DNA from: an uncultured Christensenella sp.
GTDB taxonomy: Bacteria; Bacillota; Clostridia; Christensenellales; UBA1242
Assembly (NCBI GenBank): GCA_949292875.1
Contig: CASFBJ010000008.1
Location: forward strand, 4,547 to 68,546
Direction of reading: 5' to 3'
Length of the DNA: 64,000 nucleotides
This document shows, in pieces, positions 42,085 to 63,187 of this stretch. The notes under the pieces were generated by a model, which saw nothing but the letters and a program-made list of their open reading frames with translations, had not been told where the DNA came from and did not search any database. The position numbers and the translations under genes are program-made. The stretch's first letter is position 1, and the number at the start of each line of letters is the position of its first letter.

Positions 42085-42120
42085 TGGTAACTAAATGAAC
42101 AAATTTTTTGATATATTACA

Positions 42121-42156
42121 ATCTCATTGTCAGGATAAGACAGTGAGATTTTTTTT
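42121..42156 (+). terminator. Intrinsic terminator A at the chromosome/phage junction
   Basis: atctcattgtc-(7 nt)-gacagtgagat hairpin (one G-U pair) plus a T7 run. Confidence 0.75.
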
Positions 42157-42157
42157 C

Positions 42158-42190
42158 AGGTTCGTCTTAACTGGCGAACCTATTTTTTTT
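42158..42190 (+). terminator. Intrinsic terminator B at the junction
   Basis: aggttcg-(10 nt)-cgaacct hairpin followed by a-T8. It sits directly before the RBS of the first phage ORF. Confidence 0.7.
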
Positions 42191-42365: not shown

Positions 42366-42406
42366 AACAAAAGCAATTAAAAAATGTATTTTAATGGAGG
42401 TATCAA

Positions 42407-43455: not shown

Positions 43456-43473
43456 AAAGGAGGTATCAATAAA

Positions 43474-44271: not shown

Positions 44272-44285
44272 GGGGTAGGTGAAAG

Positions 44286-47936: not shown

Positions 47937-47943
47937 TAGGAGG
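47895..47943 (+). repeat. Left copy of a 49-nt direct repeat (46/49 identical to 49764-49812)
   Basis: gaattaacacctattgaagatgatgg-NNN-tttgccattttagtaggagg covers the last 13 codons, the stop and the downstream RBS. Confidence 0.9.
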
Positions 47944-47947
47944 TAGT

Positions 47948-48385
47948 ATGAAATTCTTTGAACTTATAAAGCAATACAACAATACAAAATTCAGGTTGAA
48001 ATCAAAAATGAATGAAGAGGCAGAATTAAGGGAATTGTGTGCATTGCCAAAAACAAGTGATATGGGTGGAATGCCTGGTGCTCCAGGTTATAATGGTTCA
48101 CCTGTTGAAAAATTTGTGATTAGACTTGATGAATTAAAACAAGAACAAAACAAACTTAATTCCAAACTTGAAGACATAAGAAATGACATCATGCTTTTCA
48201 TTGACACACTTGATGATTACTTTGCAAGACAGGTTGTTGAATTAGTGGTATTTAGATTATCACCAAGACCGAACTGGAAACATGTTGCAAAAAGAATTGG
48301 TTACAGTGAAAGCGGTGCAAGAGCATTATACAAAACAAGTGCTTCAAAATTGGAAAATCTTGAATTGGAGGAATTAAAAAGATGA
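47948..48385 (+). CDS. ArpU/RinA/DUF1492-like sigma-70 region-4 type phage late transcription regulator
   Basis: C-terminal HTH-like segment ARQVVELVVFRLSPRPNWKHVAKRIGYSESGARALYKTSASKLE. Central GMPGAPG segment as in phage ArpU/RinA-type activators. Assignment from memory. Confidence 0.55.
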   Translation: MKFFELIKQYNNTKFRLKSKMNEEAELRELCALPKTSDMGGMPGAPGYNGSPVEKFVIRLDELKQEQNKLNSKLEDIRNDIMLFIDTLDDYFARQVVELVVFRLSPRPNWKHVAKRIGYSESGARALYKTSASKLENLELEELKR

Positions 48386-49805: not shown

Positions 49806-49812
49806 TAGGAGG
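49764..49812 (+). repeat. Right copy of the 49-nt direct repeat
   Basis: Same sequence as 47895-47943 except for 3 central nt. Confidence 0.9.
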
Positions 49813-49817
49813 CGAAC

Positions 49818-50231: not shown

Positions 50232-50243
50232 CCTGGAGGAAAT

Positions 50244-51014: not shown

Positions 51015-51021
51015 GTGGCAA

Positions 51022-51288
51022 ATGAAAACAGAATATGTGTGGGTAGATAGAAACCGAAATCACTACAAGTTAGAAGACATAAGCAATTCATACTTATTAA
51101 ACATTATTAAGTTTATTTGTGATGGTGGTGGTTTTACAGATGAAATGAGTGAAAGAAAAATCAAAATGCTATTTGATGAAGCAAAAAAGAGAAATTTACA
51201 ACACAAATTTCAACTTGAAAATGCAATAAGTGCATACCATGAAAAATTAAGTTATGAATGCCAGGTGTTTTGTCCTGATTGGGAGTGA
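51022..51288 (+). CDS. Hypothetical phage protein (88 aa)
   Basis: ATG at 51022 follows RBS aaggtaggtgg. The upstream part of the track ORF overlaps the previous gene. Confidence 0.42.
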   Translation: MKTEYVWVDRNRNHYKLEDISNSYLLNIIKFICDGGGFTDEMSERKIKMLFDEAKKRNLQHKFQLENAISAYHEKLSYECQVFCPDWE

Positions 51289-51290
51289 TT

Positions 51291-52217
51291 ATGAATAATG
51301 AATTTAATGCAGATGAAATCAAAGCAAGATATACCATTTATGAGATATTAAGCAAGTATGGACTTTATCCGCAAAGAAATAACATGATTGCATGTCCATT
51401 TCACAATGAAAAGAATGCATCAATGAAGATATATGACAACAATACATTTCATTGTTTTGGTTGTGGTGCTGATGGTGATATTTTTGACTTTGTGCAAAGA
51501 ATGGAAAATTGTGATTTTATAAGAGCAATGGAAATTATCACAAATAGCACCTTTCAACCTTACATTCCAAAGAAAGAACCTGTTAAAACCAAAGTTGCAC
51601 AGAATCCACAAATGTTGAAAAACTATATCAAAAAATGTCATGACAATTTGTCAAAAACAGATTACTTCTATAAAAGGAAGTTAAACAAAGAAACACAAGA
51701 AAAGTTTTGTCTTGGTTATGATGAAAAATACAATTCTGTTGTGATTCCTTACAATAAAGAACTTACATATTATCAAAGCAGAAATGTAGAAACAAAAGCA
51801 TTTTACAAACCAAACACAGACATTGCAGGAACTGAACCATTGTTTAACCAGGAAGCATTGAAACTTGCAGATTGTGTGTTTGTTGTTGAAAGTCCTATAT
51901 GTGCATTATCAATCATGCAATATGGATACAATGCCATTGCATTATGCGGTGTGCAGGGGTGGAAGAAATTACAGAACATAGAAATAAACAAAGATTGCAA
52001 ACTTATTCTATGTTTAGACAATGATTTTGAAGGCAAAAAGGCAAGAGATAACATCATCAATGCTTTTCCTGAAAAATCAATCGCATATAACATTGCCAGT
52101 GAATGTAAAGATGCAAATGAACTTCTTATTAAAGATGAAACCAGGTTTGTAAAAAATCTTTACTTAATATCAACACTGGTGAAGAAAACATATTTTGGAG
52201 GGAATTATGAAAATTGA
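51291..52217 (+). CDS. DNA primase (CHC2 zinc finger plus Toprim)
   Basis: ACPFHNEKNASMKIYDNNTFHCFGCGADGDIFDF (CHC2). Toprim-like VFVVESPICALS ... LCLDNDFEGKKA. Confidence 0.8.
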   Translation: MNNEFNADEIKARYTIYEILSKYGLYPQRNNMIACPFHNEKNASMKIYDNNTFHCFGCGADGDIFDFVQRMENCDFIRAMEIITNSTFQPYIPKKEPVKTKVAQNPQMLKNYIKKCHDNLSKTDYFYKRKLNKETQEKFCLGYDEKYNSVVIPYNKELTYYQSRNVETKAFYKPNTDIAGTEPLFNQEALKLADCVFVVESPICALSIMQYGYNAIALCGVQGWKKLQNIEINKDCKLILCLDNDFEGKKARDNIINAFPEKSIAYNIASECKDANELLIKDETRFVKNLYLISTLVKKTYFGGNYEN

Positions 52218-52989
52218 AAGTATTGAAAGTAAAAAAATTTTAGATGAAGCATTGAATTATGCAAAAAATGTTACTGTTGACTATACCACAAAAGAAGGTT
52301 GCAATGAGTATATAACAAATGTTATTGATAAGTTCAAAGAAGCAAAGAAAAGCATTGATGAACTTGCTGAAAATGTTACATACAAATTGGAAAACATTGA
52401 AGAACTATTGACAACTGATAATGTTGGAAACATGTTTGAAGTTGGTGATGAACTTGAATTTGAATTGTTGACTGGCGAACCTGCAACAATAGTTTGCATT
52501 GGCAAGAACCATGACAAATTAAAGAATGGTGAAAAAGCAACATTGACATTTGCATTTAAGAAATGTCTTGATGGCGAATTTGAAATAGATCCAAGTGGCA
52601 AAAATGAATGCGGTTGGAAGAATTGCAAAATGCGAACAGTTTACTTGCCAAGAATATTCAAATTGCTTCCAAAGGTTATTCAGGACTTGATTGTTCCAGT
52701 TGAGAAAATTGCAAACAATGGAAAAGACAAAAAAGAAACAATGCTTGACAAACTATTCCTTTTGAGTGTTAGAGAATACACAGGAACAGATGAAGACAGT
52801 TTGAAAGGCGAAGGTAAACAATATGAATACTTTGCCAAAGGCAACAAGTTCTTGAATGAATTCTGGTGGACTCGCAGTCCTTACACTAATTACACTATTA
52901 ATTGGTACACTGTTACCAATTATGGTCACATCAATTATTACAGTGTCTACTCTACTCTTTATGTCCGCCCCTGCTTCTGCATCTGTTAA
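52207..52989 (+). CDS. Hypothetical protein with a DUF6273-like C-terminal motif
   Basis: FWWTRSPY...YVRPCFCI resembles the WW[TL]RSP...VRP signature. The N-terminal half is acidic. Confidence 0.45.
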   Translation: MKIESIESKKILDEALNYAKNVTVDYTTKEGCNEYITNVIDKFKEAKKSIDELAENVTYKLENIEELLTTDNVGNMFEVGDELEFELLTGEPATIVCIGKNHDKLKNGEKATLTFAFKKCLDGEFEIDPSGKNECGWKNCKMRTVYLPRIFKLLPKVIQDLIVPVEKIANNGKDKKETMLDKLFLLSVREYTGTDEDSLKGEGKQYEYFAKGNKFLNEFWWTRSPYTNYTINWYTVTNYGHINYYSVYSTLYVRPCFCIC

Positions 52990-53021
52990 AATCGCAAGTG
53001 TATTAACACTTGCAATGCTAT

Positions 53022-53804
53022 ATGCGGTTAGAACCAGGAAATGTTTACAACATGGATTGTATAGATGGCATGAAGCAATTATTGAAGCAGGGTATCACAG
53101 TTGATTGCATCATAACAGATCCACCTTACAATATAAGTGTTGAAGGCAAAGAGATTAAAAGAGATAAACCAAATACAAAAACCGCCAGGAAAACATCAAT
53201 CAAATTTGATTTTGGTGAATGGGATAAAATGGACAATGCAGAGTTTGAAAAGTTTATTGAAGAATTTGTTTCACTTGCATGTCAGTTATTAAAACCTGGA
53301 GGAGCAGTGTTGTGTTGGTTTACAAAAGAAAAAATAAGTTGGTTAGCAGATTTATTCAATAAGAATGGAATTAAAACCAAAACAATAATAACTTGGCACA
53401 AAACAAATCCAACACCACAATTTAGAATTACAAATTATCTGTCAGCAAGTGAATTTTGTTTTTATGGAATAAAAGAAGGCGGAAAATACACATTCAATTT
53501 TGAAAAGCAAAATGACATGCACAATGTGATAGATTATCCAAATGCTTCTATTTATGGCGAAACAGAGCATCCAACAGAAAAACCGCTATATATTATAAAT
53601 AAGTTGGTGCGAACACATACAAACGAAGGTGATTTAATTTTGGACTGTTTCATGGGTTCATTCACAACCGCAGTGTCTTGCCACAAATTACAAAGACAGT
53701 TTATAGGTTTTGAGAAAGATGCGAAGTTTTATGAAATGGGAAGTGCCAGGTTAAAGAAAGCACAATCACAATTAAGCATATTTGACATGGGGGTTAAGAT
53801 ATAA
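53022..53804 (+). CDS. DNA methyltransferase, beta-class (probably N6-adenine)
   Basis: Motif IV IITDPPYNI precedes motif I LILDCFMGSFTTAV. The HPTEKP motif is present. Confidence 0.85.
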   Translation: MRLEPGNVYNMDCIDGMKQLLKQGITVDCIITDPPYNISVEGKEIKRDKPNTKTARKTSIKFDFGEWDKMDNAEFEKFIEEFVSLACQLLKPGGAVLCWFTKEKISWLADLFNKNGIKTKTIITWHKTNPTPQFRITNYLSASEFCFYGIKEGGKYTFNFEKQNDMHNVIDYPNASIYGETEHPTEKPLYIINKLVRTHTNEGDLILDCFMGSFTTAVSCHKLQRQFIGFEKDAKFYEMGSARLKKAQSQLSIFDMGVKI

Positions 53805-54085
53805 TGCAATCAATTCTTCAAAAAAGAAAAGAGTGTTATATAACACATTCAACTGTTGGACTTCATAAGCATCACATCTTTGGTGGTGCTAACAGGAACA
53901 TAAGTGAAAAGAATGGGTTTTGGGTGTGGTTAAGATATGACCTTCACAACCTGTCAAATGATGGTGTCCACAATGATTATCAATTCAATTTGCAATTAAA
54001 GCAGAAATGCCAAAAAGAGTTTGAAAAAACACATTCCAGGCAAGAATTTATGAAATTGATTGGTAGAAACTATCTTGATTGGTGA
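53804..54085 (+). CDS. Conserved Cys/His-rich small phage protein (HNH/Ref-like?); last early gene before the late control region
   Basis: KECYITHSTVGLHKHHIFGGANRNISEKNGFWVWLRYDLHN..GVHN is a pattern I recall from many Bacillota prophages. The function is not established. Confidence 0.45.
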   Translation: MQSILQKRKECYITHSTVGLHKHHIFGGANRNISEKNGFWVWLRYDLHNLSNDGVHNDYQFNLQLKQKCQKEFEKTHSRQEFMKLIGRNYLDW

Positions 54086-54096
54086 AATTGTATCAC

Positions 54097-54124
54097 TTTT
54101 AGCAGGTTTTAGCACATTTTAGCA
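54097..54124 (+). promoter_or_regulatory. Three TTTTAGCA boxes with exact 10-bp phasing; candidate activator site
   Basis: ttttagca at 54097, 54107 and 54117. The boxes end 19 bp upstream of the extended -10. Confidence 0.5.
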
Positions 54125-54142
54125 GAACAAATAAAGAAGAAG

Positions 54143-54159
54143 TGTGATATAATTATAAT
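54143..54159 (+). promoter_or_regulatory. Candidate late promoter: extended -10 (TGaTATAAT) without a good -35
   Basis: tgtgatataat at 54143-54153 and a second tataat at 54154-59. The -35 position reads gaacaa. Confidence 0.5.
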
Positions 54160-54280
54160 GTGCAAAAGTATAAGAAAAAACAATCGTAGCAATTAAGTTT
54201 GCCGAAAATCTTTGCGAAAGTAAGAACGGAAAAAGCAGTAAGAAATTACTTTGTGAGTTTGATTGTTTATAGCATAAAAC

Positions 54281-54313
54281 AAAAACAAGTTGGTGATGCT
54301 GACTTGTTTTTTT
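54281..54313 (+). terminator. Intrinsic terminator within the late leader
   Basis: aacaagt-(11 nt)-acttgtt hairpin (extendable by A-U pairs) plus a T7 run. Confidence 0.72.
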
Positions 54314-54436
54314 ATGGTGTTGTTCTGCATCTGTATGATACCTCGCAGATAAAGAATAGGGGAAACCGACTGCCAACATTAAAAATGCGGTTAAGGTGGG
54401 TGAATTTAATGGCAGAAATCAAATAAAGGAGTATTT

Positions 54437-54649
54437 ATGGAAGAAAAAGACATTTTGAATAGATTTGTATATCACAAACCAAAAGAAGATGATGCAATGA
54501 AATTTGTTACAATAAGACAACAGGCAAAACAATTTGCAGACATAATAAATGGGGTTGTGCCAGAAGGTAGAGAAAAAAGTTTGGCAATAACAAAACTTGA
54601 AGAAGTTGTGATGTGGGCAAATGCAGGAATAGCAAGAAGGGGGGAATAA
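54437..54649 (+). CDS. Small helical phage protein (70 aa); possible Acb2/Tad1-hairpin-like cyclic-nucleotide sponge
   Basis: RFVYHKPKEDDAMKFVTIRQQAKQFADIINGVVPEGREKSLAITKLEEVVMWANAGIARR. The F-x-YH-x-P ... REKSLA-x-TKLEE-x-MWAN-x-IA pattern is recalled from that family. Not verified. Confidence 0.4.
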   Translation: MEEKDILNRFVYHKPKEDDAMKFVTIRQQAKQFADIINGVVPEGREKSLAITKLEEVVMWANAGIARRGE

Positions 54650-54650
54650 T

Positions 54651-55043
54651 ATGAATATAGCAATTTTAATATTTTTAATTATAAACTTCTTACTTGTTGG
54701 AATGATTGTTGCATGTTTTATTTGGGGCATTCATAGTGATAACACAAAACAAGTTAAGAAGGTTCATGAATTGAATTATCAGTTGAATAAACAAACAGAA
54801 GATTTTGGCAAGTTAAGAGCAGAATATTTTGCACTGCAAGAAAGAAAACCACAACATTCAAAATTCAAAATAGGTGCAAGAGTTTATTGCATCAAGAAAA
54901 ATTTTGTCTATACAGGTGTTATTGATAGTATAAAGTTTTTAAGTGATAAAACAATACAGTATGAAATTAGCACTGACACAACAAAGGTTACTGCATTAGA
55001 ACATCAAATATTCTTGGGAACACCACCAGTTGAAGAAAAATAA
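54651..55043 (+). CDS. Membrane-anchored hypothetical protein (130 aa)
   Basis: N-terminal TM segment IAILIFLIINFLLVGMIVACFIWGI. The start overlaps the upstream stop (TAATATG context). Confidence 0.45.
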   Translation: MNIAILIFLIINFLLVGMIVACFIWGIHSDNTKQVKKVHELNYQLNKQTEDFGKLRAEYFALQERKPQHSKFKIGARVYCIKKNFVYTGVIDSIKFLSDKTIQYEISTDTTKVTALEHQIFLGTPPVEEK

Positions 55044-55060
55044 CCTAAAACAACCTAAAA
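55032..55060 (+). repeat. Second copy of the organizer-gene iteron pair
   Basis: gaagaaaaaTaacctaaaAcaacctaaaa compared with gaagaaaaaCaacctaaacaacctaaaaa at 46142-46170. Confidence 0.6.
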
Positions 55061-55085
55061 TAAGCAAATAGGTTGTTTTTATTTT
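55047..55085 (+). terminator. Intrinsic terminator upstream of terS
   Basis: caaccta-(11 nt)-taggttg hairpin (extendable by A-U pairs) plus a T-run. Confidence 0.7.
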
Positions 55086-55109
55086 ATATAAAAATACAAA
55101 GTTAGGAGG

Positions 55110-55544
55110 GTGGCGGTGAATAGCGAAAAAGAATATCCAAATTTGAACACTCCTAATGCAATAAAAAACAGGTTCAGCGGTGAAAGGGCGGTAGAGTTAG
55201 GCAAGAAAGGCAATAAGAAGCGAAGTGAAAATATACAACTTAAAAAACTGCTTATAAAAGCATTACAAGATAAAGCAGAAAGTGATATTGCCAAAGAAGT
55301 TATGAAGCAATCAGGAGTGCAAGTTACACAAAGGCGAAGTGTCAAAAACAAAGAAGTATTGGCACAGTCCATTATCTTACAAGCACTTGGTGGAAACTTC
55401 AAAATGACACAACTGCTTATAAAGATGATTGGTGAATTGCCAAATGACAATACCGCTTACAATATAGAAAATCAAAAACATGATTTAGACACAATCGTGA
55501 ATGCATTGAAAGGAGTGAATGATGACACAGAAGAAACAGAGTAA
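55110..55544 (+). CDS. Putative terminase small subunit
   Basis: Assigned by position immediately upstream of terL. Basic N-terminal region (GKKGNKKRSEN). GTG start at 55110 or 55116 after RBS aggagg. Confidence 0.45.
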   Translation: MAVNSEKEYPNLNTPNAIKNRFSGERAVELGKKGNKKRSENIQLKKLLIKALQDKAESDIAKEVMKQSGVQVTQRRSVKNKEVLAQSIILQALGGNFKMTQLLIKMIGELPNDNTAYNIENQKHDLDTIVNALKGVNDDTEETE

Positions 55545-55737
55545 AAAAGAAGTATGTGCAAATTTTGCACGAACTCACAAAGTTGGAAGCAAAGTGTATG
55601 GAATGAAGATATTTGATATTGCAAGAAACAATGAAGGTGAAATATTTGTCATATTGCCTTTGTATGATTTTGCTAAACACATAAATGTATTGGGTGAACA
55701 ATGTTTGGCGGATTCACAAAAAAGCAAAAAAGAATAG
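55519..55737 (+). CDS. Small ORF (72 aa) bridging the terS end and the terL start; uncertain
   Basis: Good RBS aaggag 4-5 nt upstream. Overlaps terS by 26 nt and terL by 37 nt, in a third frame. Confidence 0.3.
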   Translation: MMTQKKQSKKEVCANFARTHKVGSKVYGMKIFDIARNNEGEIFVILPLYDFAKHINVLGEQCLADSQKSKKE

Positions 55738-56972
55738 TCAGCAATATCAACAAGAGATGGTTAAAACCATTAACAATCTTCAATGGTGCAGTTAGGAGTG
55801 GTAAAACCTTTTTAACATATTTCATCATTCCATTATTGCTTGATGCTTTTGCAGGAAGCAGGGGCATCATAACAGGCAAGACACTTGGAACAATAGAAGA
55901 AAACATTTTGAAACCTATGCGGGATTTGTTTCCTGCAAATGTTGGTGATGTCAAAGTTGATGCAACAGGCAACAGGTATGTGAACCTATTTGGAACAGAT
56001 GTCAGGTTGGTTGGTGCGAATGACAAAGCAAGTGAATACAAAATCAGGGGTGCAACTTATGCATGGGCAATCTGTGATGAAGTTACAACATATCCAAAGA
56101 ATGTGTTTGCAATGCTTATGTCCAGGTTAAGTGAAGATGGTGCGGTTTGTATATGCACAACAAATCCTGATATACCTTCACACTGGTTGAAAGTTGATTA
56201 CATTGATAAGAAAGACATTGACATTGATGTTTACAACTTCACCATTGATGACAATCCAACACTTCCACCTGCTTATGTTCAACACATGAAGAACCTATAT
56301 GAAGGCACAGAGTTCTATGACAGGTTCATTCTTGGCAAGTGGGTTAGTGGAAGCGGTGCAATCTATAAGTTGTTTGTATTAAACAATGACAGATATTTGA
56401 TAGATGAACCAAAAGAAGATGAACCAAAGGTGAAATACATTGAATATGCCTGTGGTGTTGACTTTGGTGAAAATGTTTCTGCAACAGTGTTCAAACTTGT
56501 GGGGTTAAGACAGAACTTCAAAGGCATTGATATTATTGCAGAAGAAAGAATTACAGAACATGGTGATGTCAAACTATTGCAAAAACAATTCATTAACTTT
56601 TTGAAGAAATGCAAAAGTTATGGTTACAGGGTTGATTTTGCTTATTATGACAATGCACAAAAGACACTTGGTGAAAGTTTGAAAACCGCAGTTGCAAAGG
56701 AAGGAATTGCTTGCAATGTAAAACCATGTGTTAAAGATGACATTATTGAGAGAATCCACCTGGTTATTGCATTACTGGGTGCAGACATGATAAAGGTTCA
56801 CAAAAGATGTAAACATGCGGTTAAAGCATTTAATGATGCAGTATGGGCAGAAGGCACAGAAGAAAGATTGGATGAAGTCAGTGAAGTCAATGTGGTTGAT
56901 GACCTTGATGCATTTGAATATGCAATACAACACTGGAGCAATAATTTGAAGAAGGTTGCATTGTTAGAATAA
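55701..56972 (+). CDS. terL: Terminase large subunit (PBSX/Terminase_3-like)
   Basis: Walker A FNGAVRSGKTF; Walker B-like AWAICDEV; C-terminal nuclease half with ACGVDFG and DDLDAFEY. Confidence 0.9.
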   Translation: MFGGFTKKQKRIVSNINKRWLKPLTIFNGAVRSGKTFLTYFIIPLLLDAFAGSRGIITGKTLGTIEENILKPMRDLFPANVGDVKVDATGNRYVNLFGTDVRLVGANDKASEYKIRGATYAWAICDEVTTYPKNVFAMLMSRLSEDGAVCICTTNPDIPSHWLKVDYIDKKDIDIDVYNFTIDDNPTLPPAYVQHMKNLYEGTEFYDRFILGKWVSGSGAIYKLFVLNNDRYLIDEPKEDEPKVKYIEYACGVDFGENVSATVFKLVGLRQNFKGIDIIAEERITEHGDVKLLQKQFINFLKKCKSYGYRVDFAYYDNAQKTLGESLKTAVAKEGIACNVKPCVKDDIIERIHLVIALLGADMIKVHKRCKHAVKAFNDAVWAEGTEERLDEVSEVNVVDDLDAFEYAIQHWSNNLKKVALLE

Positions 56973-56987
56973 TAAACTGGAGGAATT

Positions 56988-58457
56988 ATGGAATTAGTAA
57001 AAACAGTTAGTGATTACTTACACAGAGCATTCAAAACAGACATTTCATATATAGAGTTCTTTACAAGAATAAGTGATTTCAAAGAATGGTATGAAGGTGA
57101 AACAAAATGGCATGATTACAAGATTTGGAATGGTAAGAAACGAAAGAAACAAAAACATCTTTCACTTGGTATGGCAAAAACTGCATGTGAAGACATGGCA
57201 AGTTTGCTGATGACTGAAAAGGTTGAAATTAGGTGTGCAAAAGAACCTGCAAATGCATTGTTGCAAAAAGTATTAAAAAACAACAATTTCAAAGTTATGG
57301 CAAATCAACTTGTTGAATTATCTTGTGCATTGGGAACAGGTTCTTTTGTTGTTTCAATTAAAGAAGGTTCAAATATGAACAATCTTACTGTTGATGACAT
57401 TTTGATTTCATATATTCATGGTGATTTCATTTTTCCTATAAAGTGGGATAATGGAAGAATAACAGATTGTGCCTTTGTTACTACTGGGAACAAAGATGGT
57501 GATGTTACTTATAAAGTCATGAGTTTTGTATATGATGAAAAAGCAAGAGAATACATGGAATATGTTGAAGAAGTTGATGGTGATGGCGGTGTTATAAGAA
57601 CTGGTGAAATCATTGAAGGTGTTGAACTGATTGAAGATAAAGGGCATCAATACAAAACGAGATTAAAACATTCACCATTTCAAATTATCAAACCAAACAT
57701 TGTAAACAACTTTGATAAAACAAATCCTATGGGTATGTCAATCTTTGGCAATGCAATACCTGTTCTAAAAAGCATTGATGAAATATATTCATCTTACAAA
57801 AATGAATTTAGAATGGGCAGAAAAAGAATATTTGTCAAAGCAGGGTTACAAGCAATCAGGTATGACAAAACAGATGACACCTGGATTGATTACATTGATG
57901 ACAATGAAGTTGTATATCAGCAACTTGCAGATGAGTGGGAAAACAACAAACCACCTATTTATGAAAGTAACATGACATTAAGAGTGGCAGACCATAATAG
58001 TGCTATGGAAATGCAACTTAATGTGTTTTCAAGAAAGGTTGGACTTGGTGAAAACTTTTACACATTCAACAATGGTTCAATTTCAACTGCAACACAAATA
58101 ATTAGTTCAAATTCTAGTTTATTTAGGAATATAAGAAAGCATGAATTAGTGCTTGAACCTGCACTTATTGGACTAGCAGAAGCAATTTGTGAGTATTTGA
58201 AGGTTGATCCTGGTGAAATTACTGTTGACTTTGATGACAGTATTATCATTGACACAGAAAGCGAAAAGAACCAAGCAATGCAGGAATATCAAGCAGGTTT
58301 AATTGATAAGGTTGAATATTTTGTCAAAACACAAAAGATGACAAGAAACCAAGCAAAAAAACATGTTGATGAAATGACAGCAACAGGCACAATGATGGAA
58401 GCAGAAGACATCTTGGCAGAAAAATATAGTGAAGAAATGGGAGGAATGCATGAGTAA
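56988..58457 (+). CDS. Portal protein
   Basis: 489 aa, immediately after terL. SPP1 gp6-like size and acidic C-terminus. Confidence 0.8.
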   Translation: MELVKTVSDYLHRAFKTDISYIEFFTRISDFKEWYEGETKWHDYKIWNGKKRKKQKHLSLGMAKTACEDMASLLMTEKVEIRCAKEPANALLQKVLKNNNFKVMANQLVELSCALGTGSFVVSIKEGSNMNNLTVDDILISYIHGDFIFPIKWDNGRITDCAFVTTGNKDGDVTYKVMSFVYDEKAREYMEYVEEVDGDGGVIRTGEIIEGVELIEDKGHQYKTRLKHSPFQIIKPNIVNNFDKTNPMGMSIFGNAIPVLKSIDEIYSSYKNEFRMGRKRIFVKAGLQAIRYDKTDDTWIDYIDDNEVVYQQLADEWENNKPPIYESNMTLRVADHNSAMEMQLNVFSRKVGLGENFYTFNNGSISTATQIISSNSSLFRNIRKHELVLEPALIGLAEAICEYLKVDPGEITVDFDDSIIIDTESEKNQAMQEYQAGLIDKVEYFVKTQKMTRNQAKKHVDEMTATGTMMEAEDILAEKYSEEMGGMHE

Positions 58458-59367
58458 CTTTATTGGAATGGTGTTTGCCACACTTAAAAAAGAAGGCATT
58501 GATACAAGCAAAATGGACACAAGCGAAGCAATCGCAAAATACAATGAAATTCAGGGCAGTGGTGGCGGTTCATCTACCAAAGGTGATGAAACACCAAAGA
58601 CAGAGCAAAAGACCGCTACAAAGGCAACAGATAAGAAAAATTTAGCAGTTGATGAAGGAACTACCGAGAAAGACTCGGCAGATGCAACAGTTTCCAAAAA
58701 GGAAACAGTTGAAGAAACTGGTGTAATAAGTCAGGACAAACAAAGGAATGACAGATATACAACAGGCAATCCTGACAATATTTCAAAGCAATCAAACATT
58801 GCAAACATTGGCAATGACCTTCAAAACTATAAAGGTTCAGGAAGTGCTGACTTGGTATTGCCTGGTGGCAAGTTTGTTCAAATTAGACCGCAAAAAGATG
58901 GTTCATTCCTGGTAAGAACGAGCAATGGGCAAAAATATGTTTCTTCTGTTGATGATGCGAAACAAGAAGCAGTCAATGCTTATGGTGGCAGTTCTACACA
59001 ACATGGAGCAATAAATACTGCTGAAAAAATGTCAACCGCAATGGGAATTTCACCTGATGAAGCAAAAGCATTTGTTTCAGGAAAAGGTTCATTGACAAAA
59101 GGTGGTTATGAAGGTGTAAGCAATGTCAAATCTGCACCAACTTTTGAATATAATACAACTAAAAAAGTTAGCACATGGGAAGAAGCACAGACTTATATTA
59201 AAGATATTAAACAAAAAATCAATGAACTAAACAATCAATTAAATAATGCTCCAAACAATGAAACAAAGAACAATATAAACTTACAGATAGCAAACTTAAA
59301 ATATGAACTTGCAAATTTTTATGATGAAAATGATGTAGATAGTTTGTGGTTAAAACGAAATAAGTAG
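58450..59367 (+). CDS. Hypothetical head-module protein carrying shared N-terminal module, copy 1
   Basis: MSNFIGMVFATLKKEGIDTSKMDTSEAIAKYNEI, then a Gly/Ser/Thr linker and a unique 260-aa C-terminus. ATG at 58450 follows RBS ggagga. Confidence 0.55.
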   Translation: MSNFIGMVFATLKKEGIDTSKMDTSEAIAKYNEIQGSGGGSSTKGDETPKTEQKTATKATDKKNLAVDEGTTEKDSADATVSKKETVEETGVISQDKQRNDRYTTGNPDNISKQSNIANIGNDLQNYKGSGSADLVLPGGKFVQIRPQKDGSFLVRTSNGQKYVSSVDDAKQEAVNAYGGSSTQHGAINTAEKMSTAMGISPDEAKAFVSGKGSLTKGGYEGVSNVKSAPTFEYNTTKKVSTWEEAQTYIKDIKQKINELNNQLNNAPNNETKNNINLQIANLKYELANFYDENDVDSLWLKRNK

Positions 59368-59374
59368 GTGGTAT

Positions 59375-59734
59375 ATGTCAAATTTCATAGGTTTAGTGTT
59401 TGGAACACTAAAAAAGGAAGGTATTGACACTAAAAATATGAGTGTTGATGATGCTATTGCAAAATACAATGAAATCACAAAATCATCTTCAAAGTTATTG
59501 ACATCAGGAACAACTGGAGGTAAAATACAACTACCAAAACAAGAATATGCACAAGTGGCACATGCTTTGGCAACCAAATACGCAAACAAGTCAATCAAAG
59601 CAACATCAATAAGCATTGGAAATACAATGTATATGGTAAAAAAAGTTAAACCAGGTTATTTTGAAGTTGTTGACAAGATTGACATTGAAGAATATAGAAA
59701 TTTGATTGAAATGTTGGAGGATAAAGATGATTGA
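59375..59734 (+). CDS. Hypothetical head-module protein carrying shared N-terminal module, copy 2
   Basis: MSNFIGLVFGTLKKEGIDTKNMSVDDAIAKYNEI, then an unrelated 85-aa C-terminus. Confidence 0.55.
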   Translation: MSNFIGLVFGTLKKEGIDTKNMSVDDAIAKYNEITKSSSKLLTSGTTGGKIQLPKQEYAQVAHALATKYANKSIKATSISIGNTMYMVKKVKPGYFEVVDKIDIEEYRNLIEMLEDKDD

Positions 59735-59930
59735 TGACAAAGAAATTGCACAGAAATTAAAACCTGAATTAAAAAGGTTTAATTTGACACATGAACAGAT
59801 TACTGCAATAGCAATAGCAATAAAAAAGAATCCACAACACTTGGACAAATGTGTTGAATATCTAAAAAAAGCAGATGATAAAACATCAGGTGAAGAAATA
59901 CAAACTGAAATCATTGACATCTGCTATTAA
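59727..59930 (+). CDS. Hypothetical small protein (67 aa)
   Basis: ATG at 59727 follows RBS ggagga and overlaps the upstream stop. Confidence 0.4.
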   Translation: MIDDKEIAQKLKPELKRFNLTHEQITAIAIAIKKNPQHLDKCVEYLKKADDKTSGEEIQTEIIDICY

Positions 59931-59940
59931 AAATAAACAA

Positions 59941-59970
59941 AAAGCAACTAGAACACATAGTTGCTTTTTT
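59941..59970 (+). terminator. Intrinsic terminator inside the head module
   Basis: aaagcaacta-(7 nt)-tagttgcttt hairpin plus ttt. Confidence 0.72.
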
Positions 59971-59986
59971 AATACCTGGAGGCAAG

Positions 59987-60943
59987 ATGTATAACATTAA
60001 AGAAATTGTTGCTGACCTGGAACTTGATATCAAAATTTTGATAAAACAAGCAGTTTTTAATGTGTTTAAGGCAGAAAACTTGATGAAGACAGTTACTGCA
60101 TTGATTGATAAGGAATTACAACCAGTAAAAGACAAACAGGTTAAAGACAGAGTAAAGAAAAGTTTAATTAAGTTCACAATTAAGCAATGGAAAACAATTT
60201 GCCATTCACTGCATCTTGGCGAACCATTATTGTTGATAGGTTTAGCAATACACAACCGCAAAACACCTGTTACAGACCTTCAAAAGAAGTCATTGCAGGT
60301 GGCGGTAAGCAAAAGCATAAACATGACAATAAAAACAAATGCAAATGCTATAAACAACACACTTTCAAATCTTGCAGATAGTTATCCAACAACCAAGATT
60401 GCACATCAACCATTGGACAGTCAGGTTGAGATGTGGCAAAGACATGAAGACCAGGAACAGATGGTTGACAGATTAAAACAACAAACTGACCTGGTTATTG
60501 TAAGCAGTCATGCAAACTGTTCTGCAAGATGTGCAAAATGGCAGGGTAAGGTGTTGAGTTTAAGCAACAAGTCAGGCATGACAACAGATGGCAAAACAAT
60601 TTATCCATTAAAACAGGCAACAGATGTATTTGTAACAACAAAGGCAGGCAGAACCTGGAAGAATGGATTGCTTGGGTTTAATTGCAGACATAAATTAATC
60701 CCTTACAAACCTGGAATGCGACAACCACATGTTAGCGAAGCACAAAGAAAGCATGAATATGCCATTGAATTAAAGCAAAGAGAATTTGAAAGACAAATAC
60801 GAAAATGCAAAACAGATGGCAAACTTTTGGAAGGTGCAGAAGCACAAAAACAAAGGTTAAAAGCAAAACAGTTAACACTTGAATATCAAAAGTTCTGTGT
60901 TGATAATGGCAGAGCATTCTACAAATCACGAATAGTGATATAA
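59987..60943 (+). CDS. Minor capsid / head morphogenesis protein (Mu F, SPP1 gp7 or minor-capsid-2 like)
   Basis: SSHANCSARCAKWQGKVLSL and GFNCRHKLIPY motifs. Located in the head module, downstream of the portal gene (three small ORFs intervene). Confidence 0.68.
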   Translation: MYNIKEIVADLELDIKILIKQAVFNVFKAENLMKTVTALIDKELQPVKDKQVKDRVKKSLIKFTIKQWKTICHSLHLGEPLLLIGLAIHNRKTPVTDLQKKSLQVAVSKSINMTIKTNANAINNTLSNLADSYPTTKIAHQPLDSQVEMWQRHEDQEQMVDRLKQQTDLVIVSSHANCSARCAKWQGKVLSLSNKSGMTTDGKTIYPLKQATDVFVTTKAGRTWKNGLLGFNCRHKLIPYKPGMRQPHVSEAQRKHEYAIELKQREFERQIRKCKTDGKLLEGAEAQKQRLKAKQLTLEYQKFCVDNGRAFYKSRIVI

Positions 60944-60964
60944 GCACCTGGTTGGTGCTTTTTT
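60942..60964 (+). terminator. Intrinsic terminator
   Basis: aagcacc-(5 nt)-ggtgctt hairpin plus tttt. Confidence 0.65.
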
Positions 60965-61024
60965 AATTGGTATAACCAACAGAAGTTGTTTATATAAACA
61001 AAATTATTTTTTAAGGAGGTAAAT

Positions 61025-61267
61025 ATGGACAATGTATTTCTTGAACTTGTTGAAGAAACTTTGAAGCAACATGGCATTGATGCAACAGACATGGCTGATG
61101 AAGAAAAAATCAGGCAATTTGAGCAACTTGCAAACAAAGACACAGAAGTTGCAGAAGAAGTTGTTGAAAAGGTTGCAGAAGAAGCGGAAGCAACTGGCAC
61201 AGATGAAGATCCTGATGCTGAACAACCACTACCAACTGGCACTGTCAGTCCAACAAAATTAGTGTAA
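61025..61267 (+). CDS. Acidic 80-aa protein carrying a diverged copy of the shared N-terminal module
   Basis: MDNVFLELVEETLKQHGIDATDMADEEKIRQFEQL aligns with the N-termini of the ORFs at 58450 and 59375. RBS aaggagg. Confidence 0.5.
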   Translation: MDNVFLELVEETLKQHGIDATDMADEEKIRQFEQLANKDTEVAEEVVEKVAEEAEATGTDEDPDAEQPLPTGTVSPTKLV

Positions 61268-61317
61268 TAAATAATTTTGTTTAATTAGTCAACAAAGACT
61301 CAAAAAAAGGAGCAATT

Positions 61318-61962
61318 ATGGAAGAAATTGAAAAGGTGGACACATCAACACCACAAAATGATGGAACAGATTTGGTTGACACTTCCAAAGAAGAAAAAGT
61401 GGACAATGGTTTTGACAAGTTAGAAGATGCAGATTTTGAAGAAACAAAAGATGCTGAAACAAACGAGAATGAACCTGCAAAACAAGACAAGAAGGTTGAC
61501 AAAACCTATACACAAGCAGAGTTGGAAAAAGTGTTGGAAAAAAGGTTGGCAAGAGCAACCGCACAACACAAAAAAGAACTTGAAGCACTTGAACAAAGAT
61601 ATAAAACAGGTGATTATTCGCCTGAAATAAAATCTTTACAAGAAGAATTAAAGTCAGCAAACCAAAAGAATGTTGAAATGCAAAATCAACTTGTAAGATA
61701 CGAGATTGACACTGCATTCACAAAAGCACAGGTTAAAGATGAATTTAAGGAATTTGTGGAATATAAGGTTTTGAGAATGGTTACAGAAGAAAAGAATTTT
61801 GAAAAATGCTTGAATGAATTTAAGCAACAAAAAGAAAATTCACAGTATTTTGCAGAAACCACTGGTGGAAAATCCGTTGTGCCACCAAGACCAACAAATT
61901 CAACTGCTGATGCAGAAGTGTTGGCAGGTGAAAGAAAATTGCAAAAGGCAATGGGAATCTAA
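61318..61962 (+). CDS. Capsid scaffolding protein (DUF4355-like)
   Basis: Acidic N-terminus, then YTQAELEKVLEKRLARATAQHKKELEALEQ. Located directly upstream of the major capsid gene. Confidence 0.65.
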   Translation: MEEIEKVDTSTPQNDGTDLVDTSKEEKVDNGFDKLEDADFEETKDAETNENEPAKQDKKVDKTYTQAELEKVLEKRLARATAQHKKELEALEQRYKTGDYSPEIKSLQEELKSANQKNVEMQNQLVRYEIDTAFTKAQVKDEFKEFVEYKVLRMVTEEKNFEKCLNEFKQQKENSQYFAETTGGKSVVPPRPTNSTADAEVLAGERKLQKAMGI

Positions 61963-61994
61963 AACAAAAATAAAAAAATTTTAAGGAGATTATT

Positions 61995-62873
61995 ATGGCA
62001 AATAATATTAGTTTACACAAAGTGTATTTGAAGTCATTAGACAAAATTTATCAAAATGAGTGTCTTACATCTATATTAGACACAGAAGAAATTGACTCTA
62101 CAAGAGAAGCAAAAACATTCACTGTTGACAAAATGGAAATGGATGGTTTGAGTGATTACAGTAGAGCAAATGGTTATGTAAATGGTGATGTTACATTAAC
62201 ACAAGAAGAAAAATCACCAAACTATGACAGGGGCAAAAAGTTTTCTGTTGATGAAATGGATGATGTTGAAAGTGGTTACATTGCATTTGGAAAACTTTCA
62301 GGCGAATTTGAAAGAACCAAAGTTATTCCTGAAATTGATGCATTTAGAATTGCAAAATATGCTAAAAATGCAGGATTAACAAAATTTGGTGCTATCACAA
62401 CTCCAGAAGATGCAGTGTCAGCAGTTGAAACCGCAGAACAAGAAATGGGTGATAAAGAAGTTCCATTGGAAAACTGTGTAATGTTCGTTTCTAACTCATA
62501 CTACAACCTTTTAAGAAGGGGTGCAGTTCAAAGATTTAGCGAAGTAAACAACACAAAAGTAAATAGAAAACTTGAAGAATTTGATGACATGAAAATTGTC
62601 AAAGTTCCTGAAAAGAGATTTTACAGTGATTGTGTGCTTGGTGAAAAAGGTTACACAAATGGCGGTTCAAAACTTAACTTCTTGATTGTTGAAAAATCAG
62701 CAGTTATGCAATTCCAAAAACACAAAGCATCAAATGTTATTTCACCTGAACAAAACCAAAATGCAGATGCATACATCTTGAAATATAGAAACTATGGACT
62801 TGCAGATGTTTATGATAACAAAATTGATGGTATTTACTCACATTCTGTTGAAGAAGTGGTTGTGGAAGCATAG
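61995..62873 (+). CDS. Major capsid protein
   Basis: 292 aa. Position after the scaffold gene, strong RBS aaggag, followed by a terminator-bounded small gene. The family was not identified by motif. Confidence 0.65.
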   Translation: MANNISLHKVYLKSLDKIYQNECLTSILDTEEIDSTREAKTFTVDKMEMDGLSDYSRANGYVNGDVTLTQEEKSPNYDRGKKFSVDEMDDVESGYIAFGKLSGEFERTKVIPEIDAFRIAKYAKNAGLTKFGAITTPEDAVSAVETAEQEMGDKEVPLENCVMFVSNSYYNLLRRGAVQRFSEVNNTKVNRKLEEFDDMKIVKVPEKRFYSDCVLGEKGYTNGGSKLNFLIVEKSAVMQFQKHKASNVISPEQNQNADAYILKYRNYGLADVYDNKIDGIYSHSVEEVVVEA

Positions 62874-62891
62874 TGAAGGAGGTATTAAAAT

Positions 62892-63074
62892 ATGCTATTA
62901 GAAACAGTTAAAACATATAAAGATAAATACACAGGCGAAATCTTCAAAACAGGTTCAACAAGAACAGTTGAAGCAGAAAGGGGCAAAGCACTTATTGCAA
63001 GAGGTGTTGCAGTTGAAGCAGAAGACAAGAAAACTAAAAAAGCAGAAAAGAAAACAGAAGAACCTGCTGAATAG
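62892..63074 (+). CDS. Small Lys-rich hypothetical protein (60 aa)
   Basis: RBS aaggagg. C-terminal KKTKKAEKKTEEPAE. Confidence 0.4.
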   Translation: MLLETVKTYKDKYTGEIFKTGSTRTVEAERGKALIARGVAVEAEDKKTKKAEKKTEEPAE

Positions 63075-63097
63075 TCCTGTAAATTATAAATTAAACA

Positions 63098-63127
63098 AAA
63101 AGGCATTGAAATACAGTGCCTTTTTTA
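63098..63127 (+). terminator. Intrinsic terminator after the capsid gene block
   Basis: aaggcatt-(7 nt)-agtgcctt hairpin (one G-U pair) plus a T6 run. Confidence 0.68.
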
Positions 63128-63187
63128 TCACTATTAAAGGAAAATCGCAGTTCAATTCTGCAAATAGTGCAATAAATGGAGGAAATT

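Follow-up and report, generated by a model that had tools for sequence, protein, structure and literature searches.

How can the late genes of this gut Clostridia prophage be expressed when five hairpins of the intrinsic-terminator type, all pointing in the direction of transcription, lie among them behind one late promoter? The initial annotation of the 64,000-nucleotide stretch of DNA analysed here (the window) held that this arrangement implies processive antitermination. Features described below are on the + strand unless otherwise stated.

Five terminators and the genes between them

The five claimed hairpin-plus-T-tract sites were all located, each in an intergenic gap. T1 (54281..54313) is a promoter-proximal intrinsic terminator with a ΔG of -11.4 kcal/mol, or -17.4 kcal/mol when outer pairs are included. 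T2 (55047..55085; -10.0 to -10.5 kcal/mol) closes the first late cassette directly before terS, T3 (59941..59970; -9.7 to -13.0 kcal/mol) is bidirectional and closes an inserted cassette, T4 (60942..60964; -9.9 to -10.4 kcal/mol) lies between the MuF-like gene and the scaffold-capsid block, and T5 (63098..63127; -10.8 to -14.1 kcal/mol) follows the capsid block. Each hairpin has 5-7 T directly 3' of it, and the z-scores relative to shuffled sequences range from -2.2 to -5.9. T1 is stronger on the + strand (-11.4 vs. -6.5 on the - strand) because its stem uses G-U pairs.

A strict ViennaRNA-based scan (single hairpin ≤40 nt, loop ≤12, ΔG ≤ -8, ≥5 T in 8) of the + strand of 54086-63180 returned exactly T1-T5. 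By chance 1.06 ± 0.97 sites would be expected, and none of 80 dinucleotide shuffles gave 5; at ΔG ≤ -9.7 the five observed compare with 0.29 expected from such shuffles. All five fall within the intergenic share of the region, which is ∼8.5%. A consensus terminator scan showed no overall enrichment (10 found vs. 9.7 expected); of T1-T5 it detected just T4 (+ strand) and T3 (- strand). It had been allowed that the hairpins might prove weak; the host's own terminators in the window have the same strength (-8.7 to -11.5, e.g. 17968-17989 after rpoC), so T1-T5 are not unusually weak. They are genuine Rho-independent terminators, co-directional and kept by selection, and should terminate transcription, perhaps with only moderate efficiency since their stems are A-U rich and the T2 loop is 11 nt long.

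The first late cassette (54437..55043) consists of an Acb2/Tad1-like 70-aa gene (54437-54649; PF24729, E 3e-20) and a 130-aa gene (54651-55043) whose N-terminus appears by eye to be membrane-spanning. The first slot is swappable, being occupied by a 92-aa gene in the related loci L002, L005 and L007 and by DUF6275 in L003 and L057. Candidate terS (55110-55544), so assigned by position and with only a weak match to a PHROG of unknown function, is followed by terL (55701-56972) and an SPP1-type portal gene (56988-58457). Between the portal and the MuF-like minor head protein gene (59987..60943; phrog_581, E 1.3e-29; PF06152 in relatives), which are directly adjacent in L050-L053, lies the inserted cassette (58429..59930), whose ORFs of 312, 119 and 74 aa had no family matches. 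The region's best sigma-70-like matches (59424-59452 and 59498-59526) fall inside this cassette. The scaffold-capsid block (61025..63074) comprises an 80-aa ORF, the scaffold gene (61318-61962), the major capsid protein gene (61995-62873) and a 60-aa ORF. The capsid genes, which are required in the greatest amounts, are placed behind four terminators, and we counted this placement in favor of the mechanism discussed below.

The early operon had been described as free of comparable structure. This holds for its interior (42.2-54.1 kb), where the strict scan gave a single marginal hit, poorly tailed and within coding sequence, but not for its 5' leader, which contains two tandem terminators. Here, at the left end of the prophage (42108..42190), a -10 TACAAT (42114-42119) is followed by hairpin 1 (42120-42150; ΔG -14.7), which overlaps the inferred start site, and hairpin 2 (42158-42181; ΔG -13.5), each with about eight T behind it; a ribosome-binding site and the first early gene, at 42210, come 3' of both. 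In RNA starting at the inferred site, hairpin 2 still folds, and the same layout with different stems is seen in L064 and L062.

The late promoter and its candidate regulator

The late promoter region (54098-54159) is the one recognizable late promoter, in agreement with the single candidate proposed earlier. It begins with three 7-nt direct repeats (TTTAGCA, 10-bp spacing, 54098..54124), presumably the binding site of an Ltr-like protein, and this triplet was found once in the whole window. The repeats are conserved in relatives as three copies of AGCR in L044/L047, of TTTAGCAC in L057/L059 and of TTAGCA in L062, and are replaced by three copies of TTTTACAC in L052. The promoter core (54145..54159) is a perfect extended -10, TGATATAAT, with a second TATAAT immediately after; apart from TGNTATAAT at 54145-54153 the + strand of the phage part has no perfect extended -10, and GTGTGATATAATTATAAT is invariant or near-invariant across all lineages. 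From this we infer a transcription start at ∼54160-54166, upstream of T1. As had been claimed, no convincing sigma-A promoter was found after any of the five terminators, nor was a conserved -10 found downstream of T1 across the lineages compared.

Three ORFs had been put forward as possible sources of a terminator-resistance factor, none of them a recognizable Q, N or LoaP homolog, and the ORFs of the window indeed have no Q, N or NusG/LoaP-type domain on record. The ORF at 47948..48385 remains a candidate factor, with an identity that the initial annotation did not recognize: it encodes a 145-aa candidate late-transcription regulator of the Ltr superfamily (DUF1492/sigma-70 region-4-like) that matches phrog_36 ‘transcriptional regulator’ (E 1.8e-12). 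Foldseek matched the last ∼60 residues of its AlphaFold2 model (pLDDT 86) to SigA region 4 with a probability of 0.9-0.97 and an rmsd of 2.1-3.3 Å. The protein itself falls below all Pfam and NCBIfam cut-offs; a profile search with it gave 576 clusters, distant members of which pass the Pfam DUF1492 cut-off and match Sigma70_r4. It is best read as a distant Ltr/DUF1492, sigma-region-4-like late activator. Ltr proteins depend on two to four direct repeats ahead of the late promoter, in the case of ArpU on three 7-nt copies (PMC3753634). Of the other two candidates, 53804-54085 looks HNH-like by eye, has no domain match and has homologs in the replication modules of other phages, and 45508-45858 gave no informative match.

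Conservation of the terminators and a structured leader RNA

Relatives whose terminase is 59-83% identical carry hairpin-plus-T-tract sites at matching junctions; their stem sequences differ and the T-tracts themselves are conserved. Seven lineages have T1 3' of the late promoter: the window, L044, L047, L052, L057, L062 and L059, the last judged by eye. In L047 a C-G pair is replaced by U-A, a compensatory change, and the stems of L057, L052 and L062 are of unrelated sequence. Since the early operon of L062 has its own additional terminator upstream of the repeats, separate from T1, T1 is not merely an early-operon terminator. In L047, L052 and L062 it begins only ∼12-15 nt past the inferred start site. 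T2 is conserved in L001-L007, L042 and L047, weak in L044 and absent in L057; the T3 stem differs in L042, L044 and L047; T4 stems differ in L044 and L047 and the site is precisely absent from L057, while an equivalent site precedes the scaffold gene in L050, L052 and 80alpha (7402-7431); and the T5 junction has four different stems across the window, L042, L044 and L047.

Downstream of T1 we newly observed a conserved structured leader RNA of ∼95 nt (54325..54416), a hairpin plus pseudoknot whose structure is shown by covariation. The hairpin H0 (54329-54333/54346-54350) has an invariant loop, GAUACCUCG, and is followed by GGGG; the H-type pseudoknot pairs S1 (54364-54368/54388-54392) and S2 (54370-54375/54410-54415), joined by a Shine-Dalgarno-like linker, GGUGGG. 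The RNA is near-invariant where the flanking proteins are 60-85% identical; H0 has five different stems and S2 occurs as CUGCCA/UGGCAG, CCGCC/GGCGG and UACCAAC/GUUGGUA. In the alignment 89.6% of cells pair vs. 31-46% with the partners slid, six pairs show compensatory change, and the covariation is 0.302 vs. 0.141, with 0/500 shuffles as high. A covariance model built without L062/L063 recovered both (E 3e-5 and 7e-5) and had no match in 80alpha, and no Rfam family matched the RNA (EAR included, if in the library). The H0 loop, GAUACCUC, presumably resembles the 16S rRNA 3' end. Between the 3' end of the RNA and the ribosome-binding site of the first-slot gene, whichever gene that is, there are always 10-20 nt; L047 has an extra ∼90 nt between the RNA and the first gene. 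The RNA consistently accompanies the promoter and T1 but not T2-T5, and its independence of the internal terminators follows from the L057 lineage, which retains promoter, T1 and RNA and is missing T2-T4.

Transcription through the terminators

Because they stand behind one activator-dependent promoter, the five terminators must be read through, either with the help of a dedicated antitermination device or through leakiness. We tentatively prefer terminator-resistant late transcription, with passive partial read-through a close second. The Ltr-like protein of 47948-48385 would bind the three 7-nt repeats (54098-54124), downstream of which lies the perfect extended -10. Late transcription would then meet T1, the leader RNA, T2 and T3, followed by T4 and T5 on either side of the scaffold-capsid block. 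Complexes from the late promoter might gain terminator resistance via the promoter-loaded Ltr-like protein, the leader RNA acting in cis, or both, and polymerases from elsewhere (early-operon read-in, spurious starts, cassette promoters) would stop at T1-T5, which would thus serve as insulators and expression tuners, as in the Gram-positive conjugative-element systems conAn and canT and in lambda PR'-tR'-Q. The leader RNA cannot rescue T1 in cis, since it lies downstream of T1.

Several internal terminators combined with processive antitermination, which we infer here, have precedent in Gram-positive mobile elements (PMC8191782, PMC8955417, PMC11658703), and in phi11/80alpha transcription from upstream is stopped in vivo by the terminator that separates rinA from terS, and expression is seen only when RinA is present (PMC3152322). 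A terminator-gated design also fits T1 in seven lineages, the leader RNA after T1 and the two early-leader terminators. To this extent the initial annotation's argument stands; its word ‘implies’ is not supported. The feature is real and selected, but in staphylococcal phage 80alpha the RinA-dependent late operon, with experimental evidence for one late promoter only (PMC3152322), contains by our own scan internal terminator-like hairpins of this kind, and no antiterminator has been described for it; leaky phage terminators and the L057 lineage likewise speak against a necessary link. Counting further against the mechanism, Rfam and domain searches found no EAR homolog, nor Q, N or NusG-like proteins, and the lone ‘RNA’ run with a relative, which may be DNA, showed flat depth over the early-late junction.

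The operon closely resembles RinA/Ltr late operons in siphophages of Gram-positive bacteria (80alpha, phi11, phi55, phiFL2A; PMC3152322, PMC3753634). Common to both are a small regulator whose C-terminus resembles sigma region 4, direct repeats ahead of the late promoter (TGGCAGT x2 in 80alpha, three of 7 nt in the ArpU phage phiFL2A), a terminator between repeats and first late gene (80alpha locus L061, 2836-2859), the gene order terS, terL, portal, MuF, small ORF, scaffold, capsid, and an internal terminator before the scaffold gene with others further on. Here, in contrast, the regulator falls below the family cut-offs and its gene is part of the replication module, 5.7 kb upstream, rather than directly before the promoter, the extended -10 adjoins the repeats upstream of T1 whereas the phi11/80alpha 5' end is downstream of the terminator, and T1 is followed by a structured leader RNA not detected in 80alpha by the covariance model. 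Lambda PR'-tR'-Q shares a strong promoter, a close terminator, a DNA site for a phage protein at the promoter and a long late operon, but here the host is a Firmicute, no Q homolog was found, and there is no demonstrated sigma-dependent pause element, the second TATAAT being upstream of the initially transcribed region. HK022 put, Bacillus EAR, Tn916 canT and pLS20 conAn2 (with the ConAn1 protein) share a structured 5' leader RNA and a long terminator-bearing operon, and in cis antiterminator RNA systems terminators insulate against read-in and spurious transcription (PMC8191782, PMC8955417, PMC11658703). They differ in that here T1 is upstream of the RNA, Rfam gives no match, no ConAn1-like gene was identified and internal terminators are missing from one lineage that has the RNA.

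Passive partial termination, in which every polymerase reads through at a fixed rate with no dedicated factor, is quite possible, though we rate it below even. T1-T5 would then set dosage, close accessory cassettes and stabilize upstream mRNA by 3' hairpins, with mRNA stability and translation accounting for high capsid output. Long-read transcriptomics put >60% of mapped phage terminators below 50% efficiency, polymerases reading through them step by step, and T7 employs inefficient terminators likewise (PMC9163698). Co-directional terminators at gene-block boundaries within one transcription unit are common to T7, Pseudomonas phage LUZ7 (PMC9163698) and the present operon, but those phages have their own polymerases or many promoters, whereas here there is one host-polymerase promoter and the most-needed genes are furthest behind terminators. 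In 80alpha, where the strict scan finds terminators at matching junctions, Northern blots gave only 2-4 kb late RNAs and RT-PCR spanned the intergenic regions from terL to ORF69, with no internal 5'-triphosphate ends (PMC3152322); phi13 has several late transcripts, one a shared 6-kb RNA (PMC13123087). The A-U rich stems with ΔG of only -10 to -14, and the dispensability of T2-T4 in L057, also favor leakiness. Against it, five serial terminators before the tail genes and four before capsid would give a gradient opposite to need, T1-T5 are as strong as host operon-end terminators in the window, keeping a terminator right behind the promoter, as seven lineages do, is wasteful if it is not conditionally bypassed, and conserved T-tracts are superfluous for a mere stabilizer hairpin.

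A role for T1 and the leader RNA in mRNA stability or translation, in place of antitermination, is unlikely; T1 would end early-operon read-through and act as a 5'-proximal protective hairpin, and the RNA, through GGUGGG/GGAGGG, would be a STAB-SD-type 5' stabilizer or a translational control of the first late gene. The Shine-Dalgarno-like linker, the presumed likeness of the H0 loop to 16S rRNA, the short T1 distance from the start in three lineages, the 10-20 nt between the RNA and the first-slot ribosome-binding site and its constant association with promoter and T1 are consistent with such a role; it leaves T2-T5 and the conserved T1 T-tract unexplained, and the extra spacing in L047 and the upstream early-operon terminator already present in L062 argue against it.

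We consider it improbable that each block has an unrecognized, non-sigma-A-like and perhaps phage-factor-dependent promoter making read-through needless: ∼45 nt after T4 are conserved in all lineages, with TGNTATAAC-like and palindromic GTTTATATAAAC elements (60970-60999), sigma-70-like matches occur in the inserted cassette, and the RinA-dependent 5' end of phi11/80alpha maps downstream of the leader terminator (PMC3152322), but the repeat triplet and perfect extended -10 each occur once, 80alpha has no internal 5'-triphosphate ends in its late region (PMC3152322), no candidate after T4 has the final T that is essential in a -10, and the gaps after T2, T3 and T5 leave only 17 to ∼50 nt before the next start codon.

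Terminators of the late operon

The five hairpin-plus-T-tract sites that the initial annotation had placed on the + strand of the late region were confirmed, at 54281-54313 (T1), 55047-55085 (T2), 59941-59970 (T3), 60942-60964 (T4) and 63098-63127 (T5). Each hairpin is followed directly by 5-7 T, as in intrinsic terminators, with dG of -9.7 to -14.1 kcal/mol (-17.4 for T1 with its outer pairs) and fold z-scores of -2.2 to -5.9; in strength the five equal the host operon-end terminators within the window. The built-in consensus scan gave no terminator enrichment, and an energy-based scan with shuffles took its place. Within 54086-63180 the latter returned exactly five sites on the + strand, T1-T5, against a chance expectation of 1.06 +/- 0.97, and none of 80 dinucleotide shuffles reached five. 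All five are intergenic, in a region whose intergenic share is 8.5%. The interior of the early operon (42210-54085) yielded one marginal hit, inside coding sequence; the earlier remark that this operon has no comparable structure therefore stands for its interior and fails for its leader, which holds two terminators.

The window is a chromosome segment of low GC (26-35%), with rpoB/rpoC-sized ORFs and others resembling translation genes in its host part and the prophage from about 42.1 kb onward, all of whose genes lie on the + strand. Near-identical prophage copies came only from animal-gut metagenomes, and megablast against GenBank phages gave no match. The early region encodes an exonuclease, Erf-like, NinB, RusA, DnaB and SSB proteins, a primase and a methyltransferase. 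The early-late junction is a 351-nt gap, followed by an Acb2/Tad1-like gene and a gene for a 130-aa protein (membrane-spanning by eye). Then come a candidate terS (by position), terL, an SPP1-type portal gene, a three-gene cassette of unknown function, MuF, an 80-aa ORF, the scaffold and major capsid genes, and further genes.

Relatives at several distances were recovered through proteins and DNA patterns. In two related phages whose terminase is 81-83% identical (L044 and L047), T1, T3, T4 and T5 occupy the same junctions with different stems and a T-run each; T2 is present in L047 and weak in L044. The T5 stem is different in each of four lineages, the T3 stem occurs as GCAACUA/UAGUUGC, GCAAUUAUU/AAUAAUUGC and ACAUCAG/CUGGUGU, and T1 of L047 shows a C-G to U-A double change. 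Differing stems at the same junctions were found in L042, L044, L047, L052 and L062. Judged by sequence, T1-T5 are evidently genuine terminators with a conserved role, and evidently under selection. In the 59% lineages (L050-L053) the portal gene adjoins MuF; the cassette at 58429-59930 is therefore an insertion with T3 as its 3' boundary. The terminator ahead of the scaffold gene is retained in these lineages. T2 ends a cassette, the first gene of which is exchanged among otherwise near-identical phages, and a 76% relative (L057) lacks T2-T4, T4 being precisely deleted with its flanks retained.

Several further features lie along the operon. The exchanged first late gene (54437-54649) is Acb2/Tad1-like in the window (PF24729, E 3e-20, an anti-CBASS/Thoeris sponge family); unrelated genes (92 aa; DUF6275) take this slot in otherwise near-identical phages, between constant flanks formed by the leader RNA and the next gene. 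In relatives, a strong hairpin of differing stem, together with TTTTAATG, falls inside the first 30 codons of terL (L044 and L047 10050-10077, L057 1954-1981, L059 1177-1204), in a segment that is a four-codon insertion relative to L050/L052; the window equivalent, at about 55750-55790, is weaker and has no T-run. The ~45 nt that follow T4 are conserved across lineages (window 60970-60999), including TTGGTATAAC, which is extended -10-like but has C as its final base, and a perfect 12-bp palindrome, GTTTATATAAAC, at 60988-60999; this segment might bind a protein, or might be a weak promoter ahead of the scaffold and capsid genes. At 61995-63074 the window has a major capsid gene of 292 codons and then a separate 60-codon ORF, where L042, L044 and L047 have a single gene of 375 codons, so that in the window either the C-terminal extension has been replaced or the gene has been split. 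Contigs from the 'transcriptomic' metagenome run X24, belonging to a phage 90-95% identical, span T1, T3 and T4 (window 53800-62300) with a flat depth of 5-9 that is continuous over the early-late junction and may reflect DNA carry-over.

The late promoter and its candidate regulator

Twelve bases past the last early gene, three copies of TTTAGCA at 10-bp spacing (54098-54124) are followed after 20 bases by TGATATAAT-TATAAT. The repeat triplet occurs once only in the whole window, and the repeat-promoter block is conserved in every lineage; in L052 three repeats of TTTTACAC precede the same promoter core. Ltr-dependent late promoters need direct repeats for activation, three of 7 nt in the case of ArpU (PMC3753634), and the window promoter matches this published architecture. 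Three or four short direct repeats close upstream of the late promoter characterise the Ltr type.

Three proteins had been put forward earlier as candidate factors, and one of them gained support. The 145-aa product of 47948-48385 matches phrog_36, its model has a pLDDT of 86, and its C-terminal 60 residues superpose on region 4 of sigma (SigA). Although the protein itself has no Pfam or NCBIfam match, its family comprises 576 clusters, the more distant members of which pass the DUF1492 (LtrB) cut-off and match Sigma70_r4. Its length and sigma-region-4-like C-terminus agree with those of Ltr proteins (~130-150 aa), but its gene, 5.7 kb upstream of the promoter, is flanked by the dnaB-like and ssb genes. 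On the strength of the phrog_36 match, the model, the sigma-region-4 fold and the DUF1492-linked family, the product is best read as a putative Ltr-superfamily late regulator, though its gene is not promoter-adjacent, and the late operon as one predicted to be of Ltr type.

The other two candidates, of 93 and 116 aa, fared less well. The 93-aa protein, HNH-like by eye and with no domain match, was rejected as a late regulator, its homologs adjoining ssb in replication modules elsewhere; the loci reached through it (L009-L041) were useless for leader comparison. The 116-aa protein gave no informative match. The annotation's view that no ORF is a recognisable Q, N or LoaP homolog held, no Q-, N- or NusG-type domain being on record for any gene: no ORF scanned or on record matched a Q-family protein in Pfam, PHROG or NCBIfam, and no NGN/KOW-domain (LoaP/RfaH) protein appeared in or near the operon in gene tables or scans.

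Sigma-70-like matches in a 119-aa ORF are a possible cassette promoter, their conservation being inseparable from coding constraint. In L050 (1740-1810), a more distant relative, 14 nt separate TGATATAAT from a terminator hairpin downstream, and a Sigma70_r2 gene lies beyond them; the pairing of promoter and terminator also occurs outside the family studied.

T1 and the leader RNA

T1 follows the promoter in seven lineages (the window, L044, L047, L057, L059, L052 and L062), about 12-125 nt from the inferred start and with stems that are related or entirely different. L062 keeps T1 although a separate terminator of its early operon precedes the repeats. T1 is followed immediately by a block of ~95 nt (window 54325-54416) that is near-invariant among phages whose neighbouring proteins are only 60-85% identical. 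It consists of a hairpin, H0, with a stem that differs in five lineages and an invariant loop, GAUACCUCG; a GGGG run; and an H-type pseudoknot whose stem S2 occurs as CUGCCA/UGGCAG, CCGCC/GGCGG, CCGCUA/UGGCGG and UACCAAC/GUUGGUA. A linker is Shine-Dalgarno-like (GGUGGG/GGAGGG).

In nine sequences, whose alignment had been fitted to two of the three helices, 89.6% of cells pair, versus 31-46% with the partners slid, with compensatory change in six pairs and a covariation of 0.302 versus 0.141 in shuffles (0/500 as high). A MAFFT alignment of seven sequences gave 88.4% paired and a covariation of 0.185 versus 0.085. A covariance model made without L062/L063 recovered their copies at the expected place (E 3e-5 and 7e-5), and G-U pairs assign the structure to the + strand RNA. 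No Rfam 15 family matched the RNA at its gathering score, or better than E about 1.

The covariance model did not detect the motif in L052 or in phage 80alpha, and a marginal match in L016 falls in coding sequence. DNA-pattern scans of IMG/VR, JGI metagenomes and GTDB genomes added only five further copies (L046, L054-L056); one other match, in L058, is a chance occurrence in a collagen-like gene. Two alternative pairings were discarded: a long-range one between 54189-54203 and 54398-54412, from a single-sequence fold, is broken at two positions in L044 and has no 5' partner in L047, and CGCAUUU/AAAUGCG, from folds of L044 and L047, is not retained in L057.

No conserved -10 was found between T1 and the first gene, so the RNA would most simply be transcribed from the promoter upstream of T1, passing T1. 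It lies downstream of T1 and upstream of T2-T5, and is present in L057 even though T2-T4 are missing there, which weakens a simple model in which the RNA suppresses T2-T5, because its constant partners are the promoter and T1. The succession of a promoter-proximal terminator and a structured RNA is a new observation here.

Passage of the terminators

Read-through of the terminators would be required. Five such terminators had been held to imply processive antitermination, which by themselves they do not: phage terminators can be leaky, and 80alpha, the best-studied Ltr-type phage, is similarly arranged with no antiterminator proposed in its literature. Scanning 80alpha (L061, DQ517338) with the same terminator criteria gave one terminator between the RinA repeats and terS (2836-2859) and internal co-directional ones (7402-7431, 11412-11434, 23294-23321 and 26837-26859). 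The internal ones precede the scaffold and the lysis genes and follow the major tail gene, and include junctions matching T4 and others. In the segment 2721-2908, a -10-like TATTATGAT lies ~22 nt past the RinA repeats, ahead of the terminator between rinA and terS, in the same geometry as in the window. There is evidence in 80alpha for a single late promoter, RT-PCR products cross intergenic regions from terL to ORF69, and Northern blots show 2-4 kb RNAs only (PMC3152322). The rinA-terS terminator is functional and the late 5' end lies downstream of it; that RinA requires DNA >155 bp upstream of the mapped 5' end of terS is an acknowledged puzzle (PMC3152322), on which the -10-like sequence and the internal terminators may bear.

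In Gram-positive conjugative elements, many internal terminators coexist with processive antitermination encoded in the leader, and the terminators serve as insulators (PMC8191782, PMC8955417, PMC11658703). The window layout fits this logic: its strong promoter is followed at once by a terminator and then by a conserved leader RNA, the cassettes are closed by terminators, and the capsid genes lie behind four terminators. As in lambda Q-type systems, T1 stands shortly past the late promoter, about 30-150 nt after the inferred start, but no Q-family protein was recognised among the ORFs scanned or on record, and the tandem TATAAT that might correspond to the pause element is conserved but has its second copy ahead of the inferred start. 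The layout also differs from NusG-paralog (LoaP/RfaH) antitermination in that gene tables and scans show no such domain protein in or near the operon, and from the cis-acting antiterminator RNAs (put/EAR/canT/conAn2) in the lack of a match to a described family in Rfam 15.

We tentatively prefer terminator-resistant transcription from the late promoter, for which the Ltr-like protein and the leader RNA would be the candidate agents and in which the terminators would act as insulators and cassette boundaries. Passive partial read-through is nearly as likely; long-read data from other phages show most terminators to be leaky (PMC9163698). A more specific form of the preferred mechanism, which we consider doubtful, makes the Ltr-like protein more than an activator. 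It would be a Q-like factor, loaded onto RNA polymerase at the promoter with the repeats, and perhaps jointly with the leader RNA it would enable the polymerase to pass T1 as well as the internal terminators. This would apply to the phage family studied and might extend to RinA-type phages at large; if true, it would explain why RinA needs sequences >155 bp upstream with a functional terminator between. For T1 and the leader RNA alone, a purely mRNA-stability or translational role is unlikely. Unrecognised internal promoters are quite improbable; the + strand of the phage part has one perfect extended -10 only, which agrees with the single candidate late promoter proposed at the outset.

In temperate phages of Firmicutes, virion production, lysis, transduction and island mobilisation are all governed by how the late genes are controlled, for which the current account is only that an Ltr protein activates one promoter. 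The design of the present locus, with repeats, canonical promoter, terminator, structured RNA and terminator-closed cassettes, is clean and conserved, so how one promoter drives >20 kb through terminators is directly testable. Should antitermination be involved, no earlier system of this kind would be known from Ltr-type phages, and a new RNA class would be added; should the terminators merely be leaky, they still mark boundaries where accessory and anti-defence genes swap in and out.

The early leader and integration

The left end of the prophage lies at ~42108, upstream of which the sequence varies between insertion sites. In the early leader (window 42108-42190) a -10 (TACAAT) is followed by two terminators, the first a 12-bp hairpin that overlaps the inferred start, with a T8 run after the second; a ribosome-binding site and the first gene (RHH-like by eye) come next. 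This layout is common to three lineages with differing stems, and adds to the impression that the family may rely on conditional passage of terminators. A refolding of the RNA from the inferred start that disrupts the second hairpin was not seen when tested.

The prophage seems to use a DDE transposase (rve, IS3-like) for integration, and not an integrase of the tyrosine or serine type. The rve gene lies just ahead of the early operon in 36-38-kb contigs resembling circular phage genomes. At the junction of the circular form (L002 3946-4200, L064 3936-4260, L062 5402-5780) TTGACA and TACAAT are separated by 17 nt, and L062 has a perfect TTGACA-17-TATAAT; the -35 lies on the right end and the -10 on the left, with a 2-nt spacer varying by contig and element termini of TG...CA. 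Integrated copies at different host sites (the window, L004 and L006) have host DNA in place of the -35. The promoter is thus split, rebuilt only in the circular form, and followed by two terminators. A reverse-transcriptase (RVT_1) gene in L062/L063 (1-630), ~4 kb upstream of the rve transposase gene, probably lies in the right-hand part of the phage.
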